Part shown: positions 4,640 through 39,252 of the stretch, one piece after another
How positions within the stretch are numbered: position 1 is the first letter of the stretch
Layout of the letters: each line of letters opens with the position of its first letter
NCBI GenBank assembly: GCA_026395215.1
Contig: JAPLZC010000010.1
Span: forward strand, 140,150-204,149
Length of the DNA stretch: 64,000 bases
Direction: 5' to 3'
From: Candidatus Staskawiczbacteria bacterium
GTDB lineage: Bacteria; Patescibacteriota; Minisyncoccia; Minisyncoccales; Staskawiczbacteraceae
Notes under the pieces: generated by a model
Database searches by the model: none
Told to the model about the DNA's origin: nothing
Seen by the model: the letters and a program-made list of their open reading frames with translations, nothing else
Position numbers and translations under genes: made by a program

Positions 4640-6811
4640 TTATGGCACCGTAGTATCAACAGTTATTGTATAAGGTGCCAAAGTAAGAGTTGCATCATTC
4701 CCTAATTCATCAACAATATGGACAACAATTTTATAAATTCCGTCTTGAGCGTAGTTGCCATTACTCATCTTCCCGTCCCATAATTTTGATGTTACAGTAG
4801 CATAACTTGTTGTCTGAGTAAAATACTTTATATAATGCGAACCATCACATGTCGCAACCGAATTTAAACAAATATAAATACGACTGAACTTTACTGGTAC
4901 GCTCACATTTATAATAATTCCCACCGATGAAGGTATGGAAGGGTTAAAAGACACATTTTGTGCAGATCCATTAAAAGTATAACTAGTGACGCTTGGTGGT
5001 GCTTCATTCACGGTAATTGTGTAAATAGACTCTGTTATTCCGTCTTGAGCCGTGACTGCAAGAGTATCATTAGATACTATCGGGTTGCCAAGAGTACTAC
5101 TTGTATTATTTTCAAGAGCGCCCACGGCAAACGTTAAATTACTTAAAAAAATAGCTTTTGCTGTTCCAAAAGAAACATTTGTGATAGTCCCAGCCCCACC
5201 CGCAAGAGAACTTACTGTATAAACTGTGGATGTTACTGTGGCATCATTACTTGCGATTGGCACGGCGACAACATGAACTAATCTTGTCACTTCAACAGCG
5301 CTATTTCCTGCAACATCAGAAACATTGTAAGTAATTGTATAATCTCCTACTGCATTAGCATCAACTGGGTTAACAATAATTATTTTTGTGGTAAGGTCTC
5401 CATCAACATTATCTAAAACTGTTGCACCCGCATCAATATAAACATCGCCAACGGTGATTGTAATTTCAGGGTCGCCCGTTAGAGTAATTACTGGCGCAGT
5501 TGTATCTGGAGGTACAAAAGCAGTATTTTGTGCTTTTGGTGTTGGTGTGTCTATCTCAAAATCTGCTGAATTATCGTCCGTATCTTGCTCTGAATTGTCT
5601 GGCAAAACTTTCCTGCCAATACTTTCACCTTCTGGCGGACATTCTCCTAGGCCAGGACAGATTGCTTTAAAATTTTCTAGGGAGCAAGCATCTTTACCAA
5701 TACCAACTTCATCAATAATATCGGGGTCATTATAATCTACAATGTCATCAGTGTTTTTAACTAAATAAATTGTATTATTGCCTGTCAGCAACCAACCTAT
5801 TGTCATGCCTGTTGGCGATGCTGCCAACGTTTTCAGAGAATCATCTGCATTTGTACTAACAACTAAATAAAAACCCTTTGGCGGAATAACGGCATCGACA
5901 TTAAAATGTTTGGAATAAAAACTCGTATTTACAGAACATCCGCCTACCCCCCAACCGCTTTTTTGAATTGACCACCCTTTTAAAGAGAAACTAGAATCAT
6001 TTGGATTATAAAGCTCAACCCAATCGTCATTTACATTAGTTTGTCCTGCAATTTGAATTTCGCTTATCAAAGGATTTTGCAACACTGGCGCGGGAGCTCC
6101 TCCTCCGCCTCCTCCGCCACCGCCACCTGCGGGCGGCGAGGTAAGACCGGGCTCAACATAGGCGCAACCTTGAGCAATTATTCCCTGCAAAGTTGCAGGT
6201 CCTATCCCGCTGACGCGCAATAAATCATTCAGCGAATAAAATGGTCTGGCAGATATAATTTTTTGAGCTGTTGTTGGCCCAACTTGAGTTATTTTATCTA
6301 AATCTTCTGCGGAGGCTGTATTTATATTTATTTGCCCGGTGCAAACAGTTATCTGGTTATTTTCATTGTTATCATTATTTTGGTCATTACTCTGGTCTTG
6401 GTCACTTTTATCTTGATCATTCTGGTCGTCTGCAACTTTATCTTTGTCTACGTCGGCAACCTGATTATCGAGATTTTGCTGGGCAATTAATTCATTTACT
6501 TTCTGTTGTATTATATCCAATTTTTCCTGAATGTCGTCCAATTGGTCTTGCCTGCTTATAATAATTGGCGCAACCGTATCTTCGGTAGATTCTTGCAAAT
6601 CAATTGCCGGAATTATGTCTGTAATTTCAGGAATTGCTGAAAGCGAGGCCGGAAAAAATTTGGCTAAAATATTAATATTTGAATTGGAAAAAATATTCCA
6701 TACAAAAAATCCTACCACAATAATGACGGTTAAACCTGAAAAAAAATAAAAAAATCGGCTCTTTTTGGGCATAAGTTGCAACAGTTCTTTTAATTTTACA
6801 CTTTTTTGCAC
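4640..6811 (-). CDS. Large membrane-anchored surface protein with ComEA-like helix-hairpin-helix DNA-binding domain, lamin-tail domain (LTD) and Ig-like domains
   Basis: N-terminal TM helix, then a coiled coil and an acidic low-complexity stretch (DQNDQDKSDQDQSNDQNND). ININTASAEDLDKITQVGPTTAQKIISARPFYSLNDLLRVSGIGPATLQGI matches the ComEA C-terminal HhH domain. A poly-Gly linker follows. LISEIQIAGQTNVNDDWVELYNPNDSSFSLKGWSIQKSG is LTD-like. The C-terminal part has bacterial Ig-like repeats (DTTAPVITLTGDPEITITVGDVYIDAGATVLDNVDGDLT). Confidence 0.7.
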   Translation of the reverse strand: MQKSVKLKELLQLMPKKSRFFYFFSGLTVIIVVGFFVWNIFSNSNINILAKFFPASLSAIPEITDIIPAIDLQESTEDTVAPIIISRQDQLDDIQEKLDIIQQKVNELIAQQNLDNQVADVDKDKVADDQNDQDKSDQDQSNDQNNDNNENNQITVCTGQININTASAEDLDKITQVGPTTAQKIISARPFYSLNDLLRVSGIGPATLQGIIAQGCAYVEPGLTSPPAGGGGGGGGGGAPAPVLQNPLISEIQIAGQTNVNDDWVELYNPNDSSFSLKGWSIQKSGWGVGGCSVNTSFYSKHFNVDAVIPPKGFYLVVSTNADDSLKTLAASPTGMTIGWLLTGNNTIYLVKNTDDIVDYNDPDIIDEVGIGKDACSLENFKAICPGLGECPPEGESIGRKVLPDNSEQDTDDNSADFEIDTPTPKAQNTAFVPPDTTAPVITLTGDPEITITVGDVYIDAGATVLDNVDGDLTTKIIIVNPVDANAVGDYTITYNVSDVAGNSAVEVTRLVHVVAVPIASNDATVTSTVYTVSSLAGGAGTITNVSFGTAKAIFLSNLTFAVGALENNTSSTLGNPIVSNDTLAVTAQDGITESIYTITVNEAPPSVTSYTFNGSAQNVSFNPSIPSSVGIIINVSVPVKFSRIYICLNSVATCDGSHYIKYFTQTTSYATVTSKLWDGKMSNGNYAQDGIYKIVVHIVDELGNDATLTLAPYTITVDTTVP

Positions 6812-33900: not shown

Positions 33901-34479
33901 ATGACAATAATTATTGGGTTAGGTAACCCCGGAAAAAAATTCGAGAACACTCGCCACAATGTTGGCTTTACCGCGATCGATAAAATCGCCGCGAATTTTC
34001 AATTTCCAATTTTTAATTTTCAATCAAGCTTCAATGCCGAAATTTCTCAAGGCGAAATTGCAAATAAAAAAGCCTTGCTGGTCAAACCGCAAACATTTAT
34101 GAATGATTCGGGAAAGTCTGTAAAAAAAATACTGTCGAAAAACAGAGACCAAGTTTCAGATATAATCGTCATCCATGATGATATAGACCTAGAAATCGGA
34201 AAAATAAAAATCATCAAAGAGCGAGGTAGCGCCGGCCATAAAGGAGTAGAATCAATAATCAAAGCCATCGGAAACGAAGGCTTAGTGAGATTCCGTATAG
34301 GCATTGGTGAGCGGACCCATGGACCGGTCCACGGGTCCAAGAAAGCTATGCAAATTGTCTTAAAAAAATTCACAACCGAAGAACAAAAAACAATAACCGA
34401 AACAATAATAAAAACCGCTGATGCTCTCAATTCATTTGTCACCGATGGCCTAGAAAAGACAATGAATAAATTCAATTAA
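33901..34479 (+). CDS. pth: Peptidyl-tRNA hydrolase
   Basis: N-terminal signature IIGLGNPGKKFENTRHNVGF. Confidence 0.9.
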   Translation: MTIIIGLGNPGKKFENTRHNVGFTAIDKIAANFQFPIFNFQSSFNAEISQGEIANKKALLVKPQTFMNDSGKSVKKILSKNRDQVSDIIVIHDDIDLEIGKIKIIKERGSAGHKGVESIIKAIGNEGLVRFRIGIGERTHGPVHGSKKAMQIVLKKFTTEEQKTITETIIKTADALNSFVTDGLEKTMNKFN

Positions 34480-35455
34480 AAATTTTTACAACTTCCAGCT
34501 GAATCATTTTAGTATTCCCGTGTTTCAGAAGTCCTAAATAAGAATTCAACGTTTCAATACTTGAATTCTTTTTTATTCTATCAAACATTTTGTTCTTAGT
34601 CTTGTTTCTCAGAACTCTATGGTCATAATAATTAACCCAGCCGAGAAAATCCATACCGGAATATAGTGTTTTAATAAAGACTTTGTCAGGATGCAAAATA
34701 AGTTTTAGTTTGTTTTGTAAATATAGTTTTGTTACTAAAACCATATTTTCTAAATACTTTTTACTATCTGATAAAATAACAAAATCATCTGCATAACGAA
34801 TATAGTGTTTTACTTTTAGTTTATGTTTTACAAAATGATCAAACTCGTTTAAATAGATATTAGAAAAAAGTTGAGAAGTTAAATTGCCGAGGGGTAAACC
34901 GTTCGGCTTAAAGCTGAAAGTTATTTCTTTTAATAAATTGATAATATTTTTGTCTAAAATATGTTCTCTTAAAATATCTATCAAAATATTCTGATTTATA
35001 CTGGCGAAAAACTTTTTGATATCGCATTTTAAAACCCAGCAAGTTTTAGTGTTATTTTTTGAAACGATATATGCAAATTCTCTAAATCTATTTATGGCTT
35101 TGTGTGTGCCCTTGTTATTTCTGCAGGAGAACGAGTCAGAAATAAAAGTTCTATCAAAAAATGGATATAATATACGATAGATGGCTCGATGCAAAAGCCG
35201 GTCTCTTACGCTGGCTTTATGGATTATTCTCGGCTTTGGGTCGTTAATTTTAAAACATTCATATCCGCCATGTTTGTATGTGTTATTCTTTAAATCATTA
35301 TGTAATGATAATATATTATCCATCAGGTTAAACTGAAACTCTTGAACGTCTTTTTTATTTCGTTTCCCTTTCAAAAACTCCAGCCAAGCTAAAAGCAAAT
35401 TATCAATACTAACTAAATCATCAAATTTATGACACAGAATACTTTTCATAATCAA
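34472..35455 (-). CDS. Diversity-generating retroelement (DGR) reverse transcriptase
   Basis: 327 aa. RT motifs KCDIKKFFASI (motif 2), LPLGNLTSQLFSNIYLNEFD (motif B') and IRYADDFVIL (YxDD). No maturase or endonuclease domain. Adjacent to avd and to the TR/VR pair. Confidence 0.85.
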   Translation of the reverse strand: MIMKSILCHKFDDLVSIDNLLLAWLEFLKGKRNKKDVQEFQFNLMDNILSLHNDLKNNTYKHGGYECFKINDPKPRIIHKASVRDRLLHRAIYRILYPFFDRTFISDSFSCRNNKGTHKAINRFREFAYIVSKNNTKTCWVLKCDIKKFFASINQNILIDILREHILDKNIINLLKEITFSFKPNGLPLGNLTSQLFSNIYLNEFDHFVKHKLKVKHYIRYADDFVILSDSKKYLENMVLVTKLYLQNKLKLILHPDKVFIKTLYSGMDFLGWVNYYDHRVLRNKTKNKMFDRIKKNSSIETLNSYLGLLKHGNTKMIQLEVVKIFN

Positions 35456-35836
35456 AATAATTATTCCTCTAATCCCCCAAAACTCTTACCTGTTTTAGAG
35501 AAAATTAAAAGTGCTTATCTTTTTTGGTACCAACACTATTTGATTATACCGAAAACGCATAGATATTCTTTGGGAGAAAAAATAGACAAATTTTTTGTTG
35601 AAACACTTGAAGCAATAATTACGGCGAGTTTTTTAAGTCAAAATGAAAAGTTACCTTATGTGCGTTTAGCAATCAGAAAAATAGACACTTTAAAAATATT
35701 TCTAATGCTTCTTTGGGAGACAAAATCTTTTGACAATAAAAAATATATCGCCCTCTCATTAAAATTAGACGAAATCGGGAAAAATCTTGGCGGGTGGTGC
35801 GGACAAATATTAAAACAAAACTCTCTCAAAAAGTGA
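35429..35836 (+). CDS. avd: DGR accessory variability determinant (Avd-like four-helix-bundle protein)
   Basis: 135 aa with the four-helix-bundle (TIGR02436-like) pattern (...RYSLGEKIDKFFVETLEAIITA...LSLKLDEIGKNLGGW). It is divergent from, and 27 nt overlapping with, the annotated RT start. TR lies 18 nt downstream. Confidence 0.65.
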   Translation: MTQNTFHNQNNYSSNPPKLLPVLEKIKSAYLFWYQHYLIIPKTHRYSLGEKIDKFFVETLEAIITASFLSQNEKLPYVRLAIRKIDTLKIFLMLLWETKSFDNKKYIALSLKLDEIGKNLGGWCGQILKQNSLKK

Positions 35837-35853
35837 GCGAGGAATGAAAAGAG

Positions 35854-35983
35854 TTGCGAGCAGGCAGCCAGATTGCCACCATTCCAGTCATTGCTGAGCC
35901 AGTTGTAGTTCCAGTTCCACTTGCCATCATCATCACGATAGACATACAGTACGTTACGGTTGCCGTTAGGGTTCAGAATGATT
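35854..35983 (-). repeat. DGR template repeat (TR); sense strand is the minus strand
   Basis: 130-bp near-copy of 36366-36495. All 12 mismatches are T on the plus strand, meaning A on the minus (sense) strand. The first 29 bp (ttgcgagcaggcagccagattgccaccat) are identical. Confidence 0.85.
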
Positions 35984-36232
35984 TCACAAAATACCGTCTA
36001 TACCACCACCCTTTGAATACTCTTGGGGTTGAATCGGATTCGGTATCGTAATACCCTAGTATTTTGTGCCAAGTATTTTCATTTTTTGAAGTATTTATAC
36101 ACCCTCCGTCTGAATCCTTGAACGCAGACGCTCTCAGCGTATGAACACTGGATTCGGTAGCAGGAAACCGTGATCTCCCGCATATTCGCCTAATACCGCT
36201 TATATTTTATCATAAATTAAAATATTAAAAAA

Positions 36233-36258
36233 CCGGACACCATACTATGTATGTCCGG
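36233..36258 (-). terminator. Terminator-like hairpin (ccggac...gtccgg) with minus-strand T-run downstream of the DGR target gene
   Basis: aaaaaaccggacaccatactatgtatgtccgg. The plus-strand A-run is a T-run on the minus strand. Confidence 0.4.
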
Positions 36259-36359
36259 CAAAGTTTGTGCTGTTCCAAACAGCGTTTTGTGGAAAATACC
36301 ACGATTGTTCTAAGGGCAAAGGATTTCAGGCCAAGACCTAATTTCCAAGTCCTAAGGAC

Positions 36360-37004
36360 TTATACTTGCGAGCAGGCAGCCAGATTGCCACCATCCCAGT
36401 CATTGCCGAGCCAGTCGTAGTCCCAGTGCCACTCGCCATCATCATCACGATAGACATACAGTACGCTACGGTCGCCGTCAGGGCTCAGAATGACATCGCC
36501 GAGGAAGGCGATGAAAGTTGTGCCATTCTGCTGGTACAACTTCTCCAGAACGCTTTCTGTCTTACGCGCCTGATAGTCCTGCCACAAGCCCATAAAGACC
36601 GTGGCTCCGTAGCGGATGGCTCCAGAGGCCTTCAGCCTTGCCAACTTCTCTTCCCCCTTGATTGGGGTTTCACCCTCTTTCAGGGAGGAGGTGAAGTTTG
36701 CCGAACCCAAGTCCACTTCGGTGAGGGCCACGGAAACCTTGTCCTGATCTTTTTGGACAATACTCCAGCCTTTGCCGAGGAACTTGATTGGGTCGAACGG
36801 AGCCGTGGCAAACTTGAGACCGCCGAAGATGAAATTCATACCGTTCTTAATGAACGCTGTCATCCTCCGCCCGATTTCCTCCGGTGGCAGACTGATCACA
36901 TTCGCCTGAAGTTTTTCTCCGTCGATTTGTTGCCAGTCGATCAGGGTTCCATTCCCGCACCGATTGATAACCTCGAAAGCTTGATTCTGTGTTACGACTT
37001 TCAT
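36360..37004 (-). CDS. DGR target (variable) protein with a C-terminal VR of C-type-lectin-fold type
   Basis: 214 aa, GC-rich. The C-terminal 43 aa (DGDRSVLYVYRDDDGEWHWDYDWLGNDWDGGNLAACSQV) is encoded by the VR. TR has AAY/AAG/AGC codons at the varied positions. No obvious signal peptide. Confidence 0.75.
   Translation of the reverse strand: MKVVTQNQAFEVINRCGNGTLIDWQQIDGEKLQANVISLPPEEIGRRMTAFIKNGMNFIFGGLKFATAPFDPIKFLGKGWSIVQKDQDKVSVALTEVDLGSANFTSSLKEGETPIKGEEKLARLKASGAIRYGATVFMGLWQDYQARKTESVLEKLYQQNGTTFIAFLGDVILSPDGDRSVLYVYRDDDGEWHWDYDWLGNDWDGGNLAACSQV
36366..36495 (-). repeat. DGR variable repeat (VR) with an IMH-like invariant 3' end
   Basis: Matches TR except at 12 template-adenine positions. 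The invariant GC-rich 29 bp at the 3' end (coding sense) is IMH-like. A small hairpin lies 5 nt downstream at 36347-36361 (aagtcc-taa-ggactt). Confidence 0.85.
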
Positions 37005-37216
37005 GACACTATCCTTCCTTCGTTTTGCCGACTTTTATTTCCTCACCACCCGGTGAAAAAACTCTATCGGCGTCTGTGCTATGGCGTTTTGCCACACCAG
37101 AAAATTGTTTATTTCTAAACCGCTTTCTGGCATGGCAAAAATAAGTATCTTGTGCTGTAAATGTGCTAATTCGCTATATTATTAATTATACACCTAAATA
37201 GCACCTTTGTCAATGG

Positions 37217-37245
37217 TTGAAAAACATCAGTTTCCCCGCTATAAT
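37217..37245 (+). promoter_or_regulatory. Sigma70-like promoter (TTGAAA-17-TATAAT) for mfd
   Basis: ttgaaa at 37217-37222, a 17-nt spacer, then tataat at 37240-37245. The ATG at 37258 implies a very short leader. Confidence 0.4.
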
Positions 37246-37257
37246 TACGCAATGTGA

Positions 37258-39252
37258 ATGGATAAAACTGCTAAAGAATTAACCCAACTTTTAATTGTCG
37301 GCATTACCCCCTATTTTTTAGATAAGGAGGTTTTTTGGTTTGAGGAGAATCTACAACAAGTGTTAGATGCCAGGCATACTCAAAACTTTTTTGAAGATAA
37401 TATAGTTTTTTTGGAAAAAGACCATAGTTTCCAGTTTTCACAATTTTTGAGGAAGCTTGATGAAATGGGTTATGAAAGGGTTTTTAAGGTTTCAGAACCT
37501 GGTGAATTTTCCCAACGCGGAGGAATTATTGATGTCTTCCCTATCAACTGTCTTCAAGCTGCGCGAATTGATTTTCTTGGAAATGAAGTAGATAATATTC
37601 AGTTGTTAGATGATAAAAAATTCTATCCTGCAAAACTTTCGGAAGAAGAGTTTAAAAAAACAAGGGAGGTTATAAAAAAGAAACTGAAATCGCAGAAACT
37701 GTTTTCGGAGCTAAAAGGATTGAAGGCGGGAGACTATCTTGTGCACCTTGATCATGGAATTGGAAAATTTATTGGCATAGAAAAGTTTGAGACTACTGTT
37801 GGAGAGTTTCAAGAATACTATGTTCTGCAATATGACAAAGAAGATAAGCTTTATATTCCACTTGGTTTAGAAAGAAAATTATCTAAATATGTTGGTTTCC
37901 AAGACCCAAAAGTTTCCAGACTGGGCTCATCCTTATGGCAAAAAACTAAAAGAATAATAAAAGAAGAAGTTGAGAAATTAGCCAAGGAGCTTTTGCAGTT
38001 ATATGCAAAAAAAGAGATTACAGAAAGAACACCATATATAGAAGATAAAGAATTGGAGTCACAGATTAGAGACAGTTTTCCTTTTCAAGAAACTCCCGAC
38101 CAAATCAAAACAATAGAAGACATAAAAGACGACCTTTCAAAAAACAGGCCAATGGATAGAATTGTGTGCGGAGATGTTGGCTTTGGCAAAACAGAGGTTG
38201 CTATAAGAACAGCTCTGTTAGCTTGTGCAAACAATAGGCAAACTGCATTAATTTGCCCTACTACAATTTTGGCAAATCAGCATTATAATGGGTTCAAAAG
38301 AAGATTTGATAAACTACCGGTTAGAGTTGCCATACTTTCCGGTTTGCAGACAAAACAAGAACAGAAGAAAATAATTGGCGATATAAAAGAAGGCAGGGTA
38401 GATATTGTTATAGGCACCCACCGACTTTTGTCTCGAGACATAGAATTTAAAAATCTACAGCTTTTAATTATTGATGACGAACAAAAATTTGGAGTAAAAC
38501 AAAAAGAAAAATTGCGCCAAATGAAAACCAGTTTAGATGTTTTGAGTTTGTCAGCCACTCCAATCCCCCGCACAATTTATTTGGCATTATCTTCATTAAA
38601 AAGCATAAGTTTAATGCAAACTCCCCCACAAGGAAGACAAGCAATAAAAACAGAAGTTGCCCCTTACGACACAAAATTTGTTAAAAAAATAATCCATGCT
38701 GAACTTAGTAGAAAAGGCCAAATTTACTTCTTGCATAATGTGGTGCAAACAATTGAGACAAAGGCAGCTGAAATAAAGAAACTCTACCCACGGGCAAAAA
38801 TTGGCGTAATCCACGGTAGAATGCCAGAAAAACATTTGCTAGAAATAATGGACAACTTCCAAAAAGAAAAAATAAATGTTTTAATGGCAACTACAATTAT
38901 AGAAAATGGAATCGATTTTCCCAACGTAAACACAATTATAATAGAAGACTCTACAAGATTGGGACTTTCACAAGCACACCAAATAAGAGGAAGAGTTGGC
39001 AGGTCTGGTACAAAAAGTTTTGCATACTTCCTATATAACGACAAAGATATGACCCCGCTGGCTAGAGAAAGGCTGAAAGCATTAGAAGATTCCCAGGAAC
39101 TTGGAGCCGGGTATAGAATTGCAATTAGGGATTTGGAATTGCGTGGAGCGGGAAACATTTTAGGCAAAGAACAATCCGGTGCCATAAATAAAGTAGGACT
39201 AAACCTATATTCTCAGCTTTTGGCAGAAAGTATAGAGAAGTATAAAAGTTAA
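37258..39252 (+). CDS. mfd: Transcription-repair coupling factor Mfd (short form lacking the N-terminal UvrB-homology modules)
   Basis: CarD/TRCF RNAP-interacting domain (LVHLDHGIGKFIGIEK...YYVLQY). SF2 helicase motifs GDVGFGKTEVA, DDEQKFGV (DExH) and SATPIPRT. C-terminal TRCF region present. 664 aa versus about 1150 in E. coli. Confidence 0.75.
   Translation: MDKTAKELTQLLIVGITPYFLDKEVFWFEENLQQVLDARHTQNFFEDNIVFLEKDHSFQFSQFLRKLDEMGYERVFKVSEPGEFSQRGGIIDVFPINCLQAARIDFLGNEVDNIQLLDDKKFYPAKLSEEEFKKTREVIKKKLKSQKLFSELKGLKAGDYLVHLDHGIGKFIGIEKFETTVGEFQEYYVLQYDKEDKLYIPLGLERKLSKYVGFQDPKVSRLGSSLWQKTKRIIKEEVEKLAKELLQLYAKKEITERTPYIEDKELESQIRDSFPFQETPDQIKTIEDIKDDLSKNRPMDRIVCGDVGFGKTEVAIRTALLACANNRQTALICPTTILANQHYNGFKRRFDKLPVRVAILSGLQTKQEQKKIIGDIKEGRVDIVIGTHRLLSRDIEFKNLQLLIIDDEQKFGVKQKEKLRQMKTSLDVLSLSATPIPRTIYLALSSLKSISLMQTPPQGRQAIKTEVAPYDTKFVKKIIHAELSRKGQIYFLHNVVQTIETKAAEIKKLYPRAKIGVIHGRMPEKHLLEIMDNFQKEKINVLMATTIIENGIDFPNVNTIIIEDSTRLGLSQAHQIRGRVGRSGTKSFAYFLYNDKDMTPLARERLKALEDSQELGAGYRIAIRDLELRGAGNILGKEQSGAINKVGLNLYSQLLAESIEKYKS

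Follow-up and report, generated by a model that had tools for sequence, protein, structure and literature searches.

The window analysed here, a stretch of 64,000 nt from the genome of a Candidatus Staskawiczbacteria bacterium (GenBank assembly GCA_026395215.1, contig JAPLZC010000010.1, positions 140,150 to 204,149), contains a locus with the gene content of a diversity-generating retroelement (DGR). Its target gene (36360-37004, minus strand) encodes a variable protein of 214 amino acids and ends in a variable repeat (VR; 36366-36493, minus strand). Downstream, in a non-coding context, lies the template repeat (TR; 35854-35981, minus strand), which is followed by a gene for an accessory variability determinant, avd (35429-35836), on the plus strand and so opposite to the other components, and by a gene for a DGR reverse transcriptase (RT; 34472-35455, minus strand; 327 amino acids as listed, with an uncertain true start). 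Directly upstream of TR, a structured RNA domain is present (35982-36200, minus strand), which would form the 5' part of the template RNA.

A repeat search of the window identified a single family of long direct repeats, the 128-nt segments 35854-35981 and 36366-36493, which are 92% identical and start 512 nt apart; a 30-mer from the repeat core occurs only twice in the window, once per repeat. VR, which covers target codons 172-213, makes up the last 43 codons of the 214-codon open reading frame (ORF). On the minus strand, TR and VR have 10 mismatches, and all 10 are at TR adenines (nine A>G and one A>C); with 34 adenines in 128 nt, the hypergeometric probability that every mismatch falls on A is 5.8e-7. 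Two further A-substitutions (GAA>GAT and ATC>GTC) are located in the AAA at 35984-35982, just 5' of the gap-free repeat, and extend the substitutions in VR to 36495. The next codon upstream has non-A mismatches (TGT versus GGC) and, therefore, TR/VR homology ends there. The functional template probably reaches 35984, and this extended TR of 131-132 nt contains 37 adenines; 12 of 12 substitutions are on A, and 10 of these are A>G. At the other end, where a DGR would have an IMH in VR and a non-identical IMH* in TR, both repeats share the GC-rich GGCTGCCTGCTCGCAA without a difference, after which the flanks differ (GTATAAG in VR and CTCTTTTC in TR; the family consensus at the 3' flank is CGCAAGTATCTT versus CGCAACTCTCTT).

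The adenines in TR are at codon positions 1-2 in 32 of 34 cases (35 of 37 in the extended template), and TR has 10 AAY codons whereas VR has two. At the variable sites, the TR codon is AAC at seven residues (174, 176, 178, 180, 193, 195 and 197), and AAT (204), AGC (200), AAG (191), ATC (171) and GAA (170) at the remaining ones. With 35 of 37 template adenines, including those of the 10 AAY codons, at codon positions 1-2, variation is possible at up to 23 residues, and the theoretical repertoire of the extended template is ~1e20 protein variants. An earlier note on this DNA, made from the sequence alone, had listed the codons at these sites and described all 12 substitutions as involving A. 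This description holds for the extended TR and corresponds to 10 of 10 inside the gap-free repeat; its VR codons, GAT, GGC, GAC, GAC, CAC, GAG, AGC, GAC, GAC, AGC, GTC and GAT, are all correct and the VR peptide that it quoted is the actual C terminus of the ORF, while its TR list is off by one count, as it gave AAC six times rather than seven.

By scanning one genome per species, we obtained 43 loci that encode relatives of the target (L001-L043), all of them in metagenome-assembled genomes (MAGs) of bacteria of the candidate phyla radiation (CPR)/Patescibacteria, and 15 of these carry a VR/TR pair. In the 16 pairs that result when the window is included, 276 mismatches are at TR adenines and 30 are not, the latter mostly at the repeat ends; substitutions at TR adenines are A>G in 64%, A>T in 21% and A>C in 14% of cases. 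AAY codons number 7-11 in TR and 0-4 in VR in the 12 of 16 loci with a correctly read frame. The window shares the order target with VR, 300-400 nt, TR, antisense avd and RT with 13 genome loci that represent several CPR lineages, and RT homologues are present at the equivalent relative position in these 13 genome loci and in about 25 metagenome loci. In about two-thirds of the 43 loci, by contrast, the target homologue has no RT within 5 kb. In one Staskawiczbacteria MAG, the VR of such a copy (L008:5538-5674) differs from the TR of a cassette on a different contig (L007:1088-1224) by 24 A and 2 non-A mismatches. Because an RT-less copy thus matches a cassette TR on another contig, we conclude that remote second targets exist. 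This second target, diversified from the TR of the cassette, is indirect support for mutagenic retrohoming in a related MAG. The adjoining RT and Avd homologue and the same A-specific pattern in 15 related loci make it secure that the repeats are a DGR TR/VR pair.

The RT matches Pfam RVT_1 (6.8e-24) and contains LGNLTSQ at residue 189, which conforms to the DGR signature [I/L/V]GxxxSQ, as well as the catalytic YADD at residue 221. Its best match in NCBIfam is a group II intron RT and is below the cutoff; there is no DGR-specific RT model in the libraries used. The avd product matches Pfam bAvd (PF22296; 2.1e-9, 38.2 bits, cutoff 40) and NCBIfam DivGenRetAVD (8.9e-17, 61 bits, cutoff 80). Moreover, all related loci with an RT have avd in antisense orientation between TR and RT, and the assignment of the gene is supported by this synteny, which is conserved in more than 35 loci. 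The avd (plus strand) and RT (minus strand) ORFs are divergent and their 5' ends as listed overlap by 27 nt (35429-35455); an equivalent overlap of the stop-to-stop ORFs is also seen in related loci.

The target is 100% identical to the hypothetical protein NTW11_03160 of a Candidatus Staskawiczbacteria MAG, and neither a signal peptide nor a membrane segment was seen on reading of its sequence. Its family is large, with at least 1541 clusters at 50% identity (E ≤1e-3) and 331 at E ≤1e-30; the 150 best matches listed are all short proteins of 120-290 amino acids. Across 40 homologues, VR columns in which the TR codon has A at position 1 or 2 have a mean entropy of 2.56 bits, as opposed to 0.92 bits in the other VR columns (Mann-Whitney p 6e-6). 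G177, L182 and W192 are invariant and R179, V181, R186, W194, W198 and L199 nearly so. The earlier view that framework positions are conserved while Asn-templated positions vary is thus confirmed in the family.

AlphaFold2 with the homologue alignment predicted the structure of the target with a predicted local distance difference test (pLDDT) score of 92.3 over its whole length. The first 60 residues are helical and are followed by a compact domain at residues 60-214 (pLDDT 96.6; predicted template modelling score 0.91) that consists of a short beta strand, two long helices and four strands in this order; VR occupies the end of the first of the four strands, the remaining three and their loops. 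The predicted domain resembles animal C-type lectin (CLec)-like domains and the domains of FGE, EgtB and SenA, as well as the DGR variable proteins TvpA (2y3c; 3.7-3.8), Mtd (1yu0; 3.2-3.8) and TaqVP (5vf4; 3.0). In a Foldseek search against the Protein Data Bank (PDB), no match had E ≤0.1, and the top ones were unrelated or marginal CLec domains. Since this search gave no significant match, we accept "CLec-like" as a resemblance and file the protein in no CLec sequence family. Similarly, a sequence profile search of the PDB gave an unrelated protein as the best match (E 0.58), the target has no match in Pfam or NCBIfam and hence no membership in CLec or FGE sequence families such as Pfam FGE-sulfatase and DUF1566, and neither 10 distant members of the family nor seven other CPR targets match Pfam. 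The C-type-lectin-fold-like scaffold proposed in the earlier note is supported as a structural resemblance. We provisionally assign the target family to a compact CLec-like fold on the basis of this model. In the strand register of the model (DSSP), the variable residues 183, 185, 193, 195 and 197 alternate with the core residues L184, W192, W194, Y196 and W198, which suggests that they share one face of an antiparallel hairpin; this face may be a solvent-exposed binding surface.

The spacer between VR and TR is organized in the same way in an alignment of 16 loci. It contains, in order, short hairpins downstream of the stop codon, a GC hairpin followed by a T-run, a TGnTAnAAT element and a block of ~220 nt that is conserved right up to the first base of TR. 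RNAalifold predicted 54 pairs in nine helices for this block in the 16 loci, and 38 of the 54 pairs have compensatory double changes. In the MAFFT alignment of these loci, 97.4% of the cells are paired, while 37-48% are paired when the partners are slid by 1-3 columns, and none of 500 shuffles reached the observed pairing values. Within the domain, an A-rich strand, AAAAAATGAAAATACTTGG (36069-36087, minus strand), is invariant, and a long-range helix of 12 bp, H6 (36058-36069 paired with 35985-35995, minus strand), ends 3 nt before TR.

A covariance model with these 16 sequences as seed (R1) has a single match in the window, at 35982-36200 on the minus strand with 223.6 bits, and also matches loci outside the seed. 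The domain is present at all 14 RT-bearing cassettes of the genome set, the window included, and nowhere else in the window. Using a degenerate 21-mer from the most conserved stretch, we found that 35 of the 80 metagenome loci listed carry the domain (104-229 bits); where the contig is long enough, almost all have avd antisense at +110 to +600 and RT at +450 to +1550. In an alignment of 52 sequences, 96.8% of the cells are paired and 45 of the 54 pairs are compensated, including 10 of the 12 pairs of H6. Rfam 15 gave no match for the domain at E ≤1 on 34000-37500 and none at gathering thresholds in the whole window. In total, we conclude that the domain defines an RNA family of at least 52 members that is independent of the target family and absent from Rfam 15. 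We regard the existence of the conserved 5' RNA domain as solid and its mechanism as a proposal, set out below.

The template RNA seems from its sequence signals to be a discrete transcript of ~390 nt. An extended -10 promoter-like element, TGATAAAAT (36204-36212, minus strand; TGnTAnAAT), precedes the RNA domain, and TGnTAnAAT is at a constant distance upstream of the domain in 15 of the 16 loci; a simple sigma-70 scan missed this promoter because it requires a -35 element. Directly 3' of TR is a linker of 12 nt, CTC-TTTTCATTC (35842-35853, minus strand), for which the family consensus is CTC-TCTTCATTT. The linker is followed by a hairpin, CTCGCTC-ACTTTTT-GAGAGAG, and TTTTGTTTT (35812-35841, minus strand), an intrinsic-terminator-like 3' end. 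This hairpin with TTTTGTTT extends over the avd stop codon, which is on the opposite strand, and in 17 aligned loci 94% of its cells are paired and four of seven pairs have compensatory changes; possibly, it is also a stem-loop to which Avd binds. A simple scan missed the terminator signals of the template RNA because their hairpin loops exceed 8 nt. A structured region 3' of TR of the type found in the DGR of the Bordetella phage BPP-1 is absent, and only the 12-nt linker, the terminator hairpin and then antisense avd are present. The RNA appears to end at the conserved hairpin and U-tract ~45 nt after TR, and there would then be no room for a 3' spacer of 140 nt.

The linker contains a 9-mer that is complementary to the 9 nt before the invariant UACUUGG of the leader and thus to the A-rich strand of the 5' domain, giving the candidate duplex AAAUGAAGA / UCUUCAUUU. 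We examined covariation of this duplex in 44 RNAs in which the linker was located by its own signature. The 9-bp duplex is 90% paired and covaries at 2-3 positions: position 5 is G-C in 28, A-U in 8, G-U in 4 and mismatched in 4 RNAs, with a leader A going together with a linker U in 8 of 9 cases, and position 8 is G-C in 35, A-U in 4 and G-U in 3. A shuffle control was uninformative because A/U-rich 9-mers readily find partners when G-U pairs are allowed.

We consider it very probable that the locus is an intact chromosomal DGR of the kind typical of CPR bacteria. In this element, a non-coding RNA of ~390 nt would be transcribed from its own extended -10 promoter and consist of the 220-nt leader, a TR of 128-131 nt, the 12-nt linker and the terminator hairpin. 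RT and Avd, encoded just downstream, would copy the template to complementary DNA (cDNA) with misincorporation opposite template adenines, and the cDNA would replace VR at the 3' end of the 214-codon target gene. Such mutagenesis would change residues in the last three strands and the loops of the CLec-like domain and never touch its Gly, Arg, Leu and Trp framework.

The DGR of BPP-1 (mtd-avd-TR-brt) has several properties in common with this locus, i.e. an RT with [I/L/V]GxxxSQ, Avd, adenine-only TR/VR differences, a VR at the C terminus of a domain that is of CLec type in the phage and predicted to be CLec-like here, an AAY-rich template and a duplex directly upstream of TR. By contrast, avd is here downstream of TR on the opposite strand, the structured RNA is 5' of TR and has its own promoter and terminator whereas the BPP-1 spacer RNA (Sp) is 3' of TR, and the element is chromosomal with a 214-amino-acid target that has no phage-tail context. 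In the Bordetella phage ribonucleoprotein, Sp53-56 pairs with the 3' end of TR and A56 primes via its 2'-OH, and Sp59-70, two nt later, pairs just upstream of TR to form the stop duplex (bioRxiv 10.1101/2023.10.23.563531). In the leader described here, the strands come in the order primer-like strand, 4 nt, 5' strand of H6, three small helices, 3' strand of H6, 3 nt and TR. Thus, the adjacencies of primer strand to stop strand and of stop strand to TR are kept while the chain is connected differently, and we read this as a circular permutation.

Altogether, we tentatively propose, at rather less than even confidence, that DGRs of this CPR clade use a circularly permuted template RNA in which the structured domain that is 3' of TR in BPP-1, with its primer strand, stop-duplex strand and protein-binding stems, is instead 5' of TR, on a separate transcript of ~390 nt. 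The leader would then be the functional equivalent of the phage spacer RNA. Its invariant strand AAAUGAAGA-UACUUGG would pair with the linker just 3' of TR, and this pairing would set the last adenosine of the strand (36076, minus strand) such that its 2'-OH primes cDNA synthesis in cis. H6, which abuts TR, would set the 5' limit of mutagenesis and be the counterpart of the "cPRT stop" duplex of the phage; the two extra A-substitutions within the 3 nt between H6 and TR fit a stop at the base of H6. Both the priming and the stop function of the leader are suggested by this arrangement. Retron msr-msd RNAs also combine, in a single folded molecule, a template and a priming nucleotide 5' of it; however, these RNAs are unrelated in sequence and structure and retron cDNA is not used to rewrite a gene, and the likeness to the 5' priming arrangement proposed here is an analogy only.

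Several alternatives have to be weighed against these proposals. The repeat pair might have arisen by simple segmental duplication of the gene's 3' end, with chance divergence afterwards, a view for which there is nothing beyond the existence of the repeat; the adenine-only differences (P 5.8e-7), the adjoining RT and Avd and the recurrence of the pattern in 15 related loci leave this explanation with virtually no probability, and the mismatch spectrum refutes it. A decayed or silent DGR, in which the TR/VR differences are a fossil of past retrohoming and VR is now an ordinary gene segment, is harder to dismiss but still quite improbable. It would explain why 29-32% of the template adenines are substituted here as opposed to 42-76% in most related loci, and a search of the protein collection yielded no near-identical variants of VR. 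However, the RT and Avd ORFs are intact with catalytic motifs present, the RNA leader scores as high as that of any family member, promoter- and terminator-like signals are readable for both the template RNA and the target gene, and there is not a single non-A difference in 128 nt, to which ordinary drift would have added some. An intact element that may still be active is our preferred reading. A number of observations do count against it. Only 10 of 34 TR adenines (12 of 37 in the extended template) differ in VR, with 10 of the 12 changes A>G, and this low substituted fraction fits mild or old diversification as well as ongoing activity. The 90% protein cluster of the target has a single member, one TR codon, the AAG at residue 191, could mutate to a stop, and both Avd matches score under their curated cutoffs. 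Finally, the candidate target-recognition hairpin is weak. This short hairpin, AAGTCC-TTA-GGACTT (36347-36361, minus strand), lies over the target stop codon in a DNA minimum-free-energy fold; it has 6 bp, starts 5 nt past the end of TR/VR homology and is in a region with a z-score of only -1.5, although most related loci have similar short hairpins with CTT-containing loops after VR.

Two further alternatives concern the leader and the target. The 220-nt domain might stand outside the reverse-transcription machinery as a stabilizing or regulatory leader, with priming and RT-binding elements elsewhere, e.g. 3' of TR antisense to avd as in the Bordetella phage. We consider this somewhat unlikely. 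In its favour, the candidate priming duplex has only 9 bp, is A/U-rich and is imperfect in about half of the sequences. On the other hand, duplex positions 5 and 8 covary, and the RNA appears to end ~45 nt after TR, where no 140-nt 3' spacer would fit. Moreover, the domain accompanies each of the 14 RT-bearing cassettes of the genome set and is absent elsewhere in the window, H6 abuts TR in the manner of the phage stop duplex, and the succession of a primer-like strand, 4 nt and a stop-helix strand parallels that of Sp53-56, G57-C58 and Sp59-70. Finally, the VR domain might be an independent small alpha/beta fold that matches CLec domains only by a similar size and order of secondary-structure elements. 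We judge such a fold to be unlikely.

The substitution spectrum of the family differs from that of the phage system. The phage enzyme in vitro misincorporates A (22%), C (18%) and G (12%) opposite template A (PMC7826257), and conversion of this spectrum to the sense strand gives about 43% A>T, 35% A>G and 22% A>C. The A>G share of 64% in this family is thus a much stronger bias than the ~35% of the converted in vitro phage spectrum. Selection, enzyme bias or both may underlie the A>G excess.

Structured RNAs beside a DGR TR have been described before, namely the RT-10 RNA motif (Weinberg et al., 2017) and BPP-1 Sp, which have been proposed to act as RT primers (PMC5737381; bioRxiv 10.1101/2023.10.23.563531). 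The RNA domain described here differs from both in that it is upstream of TR and has no Rfam match at E ≤1; specifically, there is no Rfam match to RT-10 at the locus. In the accessible parts of the CPR DGR surveys compared, an RNA structure upstream of TR is not described, although these parts do not allow a prior description to be fully checked.

The simplest view is that the locus is one more member of the CPR DGR set. Wu et al. (2018) report that the order and orientation of avd and TR in this set differ from BPP-1, and define six classes of CPR VRs (UVR1-6) without a fold assignment (PMC5758913). Roux et al. (2021) placed CPR DGRs in a separate clade (DGR clade 2) with targets that lack recognisable domains, and predicted the VR domains to be new CLec variants (PMC8144416). 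The locus shares with DGRs of CPR and DPANN the host group, the cassette of avd, TR and RT, and targets without a recognisable domain or membrane anchor (PMC5758913, PMC8144416). Identity with architecture B3 or with one of UVR1-6 is presumed.

As a DGR, the locus adds little, since the abundance of such elements in CPR bacteria is established and their codon logic is textbook knowledge. The analysis does provide a provisional CLec-like fold for a large target family without a sequence match in Pfam, NCBIfam or the PDB, and neither Wu et al. (2018) nor Roux et al. (2021) had settled the fold of such CPR VR domains. What specialists might expect less is that there is a conserved RNA domain 5' of TR and that its arrangement appears to be permuted. 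The domain offers a testable model of priming and stopping in the dominant CPR cassette, which has no 3' spacer and in which antisense avd directly follows TR, and would be usable as an RNA marker in DGR-finding pipelines because TRs could be located with it without recourse to repeat detection.

The element is flanked by hisS, lepB, pth and mfd. Because these are housekeeping genes, the element is chromosomal and cellular rather than phage-borne, and we rejected a prophage origin. The target gene is preceded by a sigma-70 promoter, TTGACA-17-TATAAT (37185-37213, minus strand), that matches the consensus at 12 of 12 positions; it is one of two back-to-back sigma-70 promoters at 37185-37245, the plus-strand one of which, TTGAAA-17-TATAAT (11 of 12 matches), is that of mfd. 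A terminator-like hairpin, GCCGGACA...TGTCCGG followed by TTTTTT (36227-36259, minus strand), read from the sequence, would end the target-gene transcript, and a GC hairpin with a T-run is found at the equivalent place in the aligned related loci.

Cassettes of this type are not limited to one target family. In most metagenome loci with the leader, the target belongs to a different family and its VR, 210-300 nt upstream, shows 13-23 A versus 0-1 non-A mismatches, and at least three other target families, with endings such as ...VFRLRK and ...CRFAAVRK and none with a Pfam match, are served by this cassette type (L065, L107, L080, L086, L108, L078, L121 and L083). In one locus (L033:4977-7589), the standard RNA leader, avd and RT are present and a homologue of the window target is located upstream, whereas TR encodes a different type of VR (WNDERNVNVNRNDNDWNDNWWF-like) for which there is no matching VR in the locus; a possible explanation is an exchange of TR within an otherwise constant RNA scaffold. 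Four leader matches of 104-186 bits (L090:75-303, L050:1032-1259, L044:50-264 and L059:21-163) are followed by 1.5-9.8 kb of available sequence in which neither avd nor RT is present, and may be orphan template RNAs or belong to a different cassette layout. One metagenome contig carries two complete copies of leader, avd and RT in tandem (L071:4033-4261 and 6402-6621).

The target gene stands out in base composition. At 53%, its GC content exceeds that of the window (38%) and of RT and avd (28-30%), and the GC content at third codon positions is 0.66 in its non-VR part and 0.27-0.38 in six neighbouring genes. We rejected adenine depletion as the cause of the high GC content of the target, since A and T are equally reduced at third codon positions and adenine avoidance is thus no explanation. 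In 41 of the 43 related loci, too, the target is more GC-rich than its surroundings, whereas RT and avd do not exceed the host in GC content.

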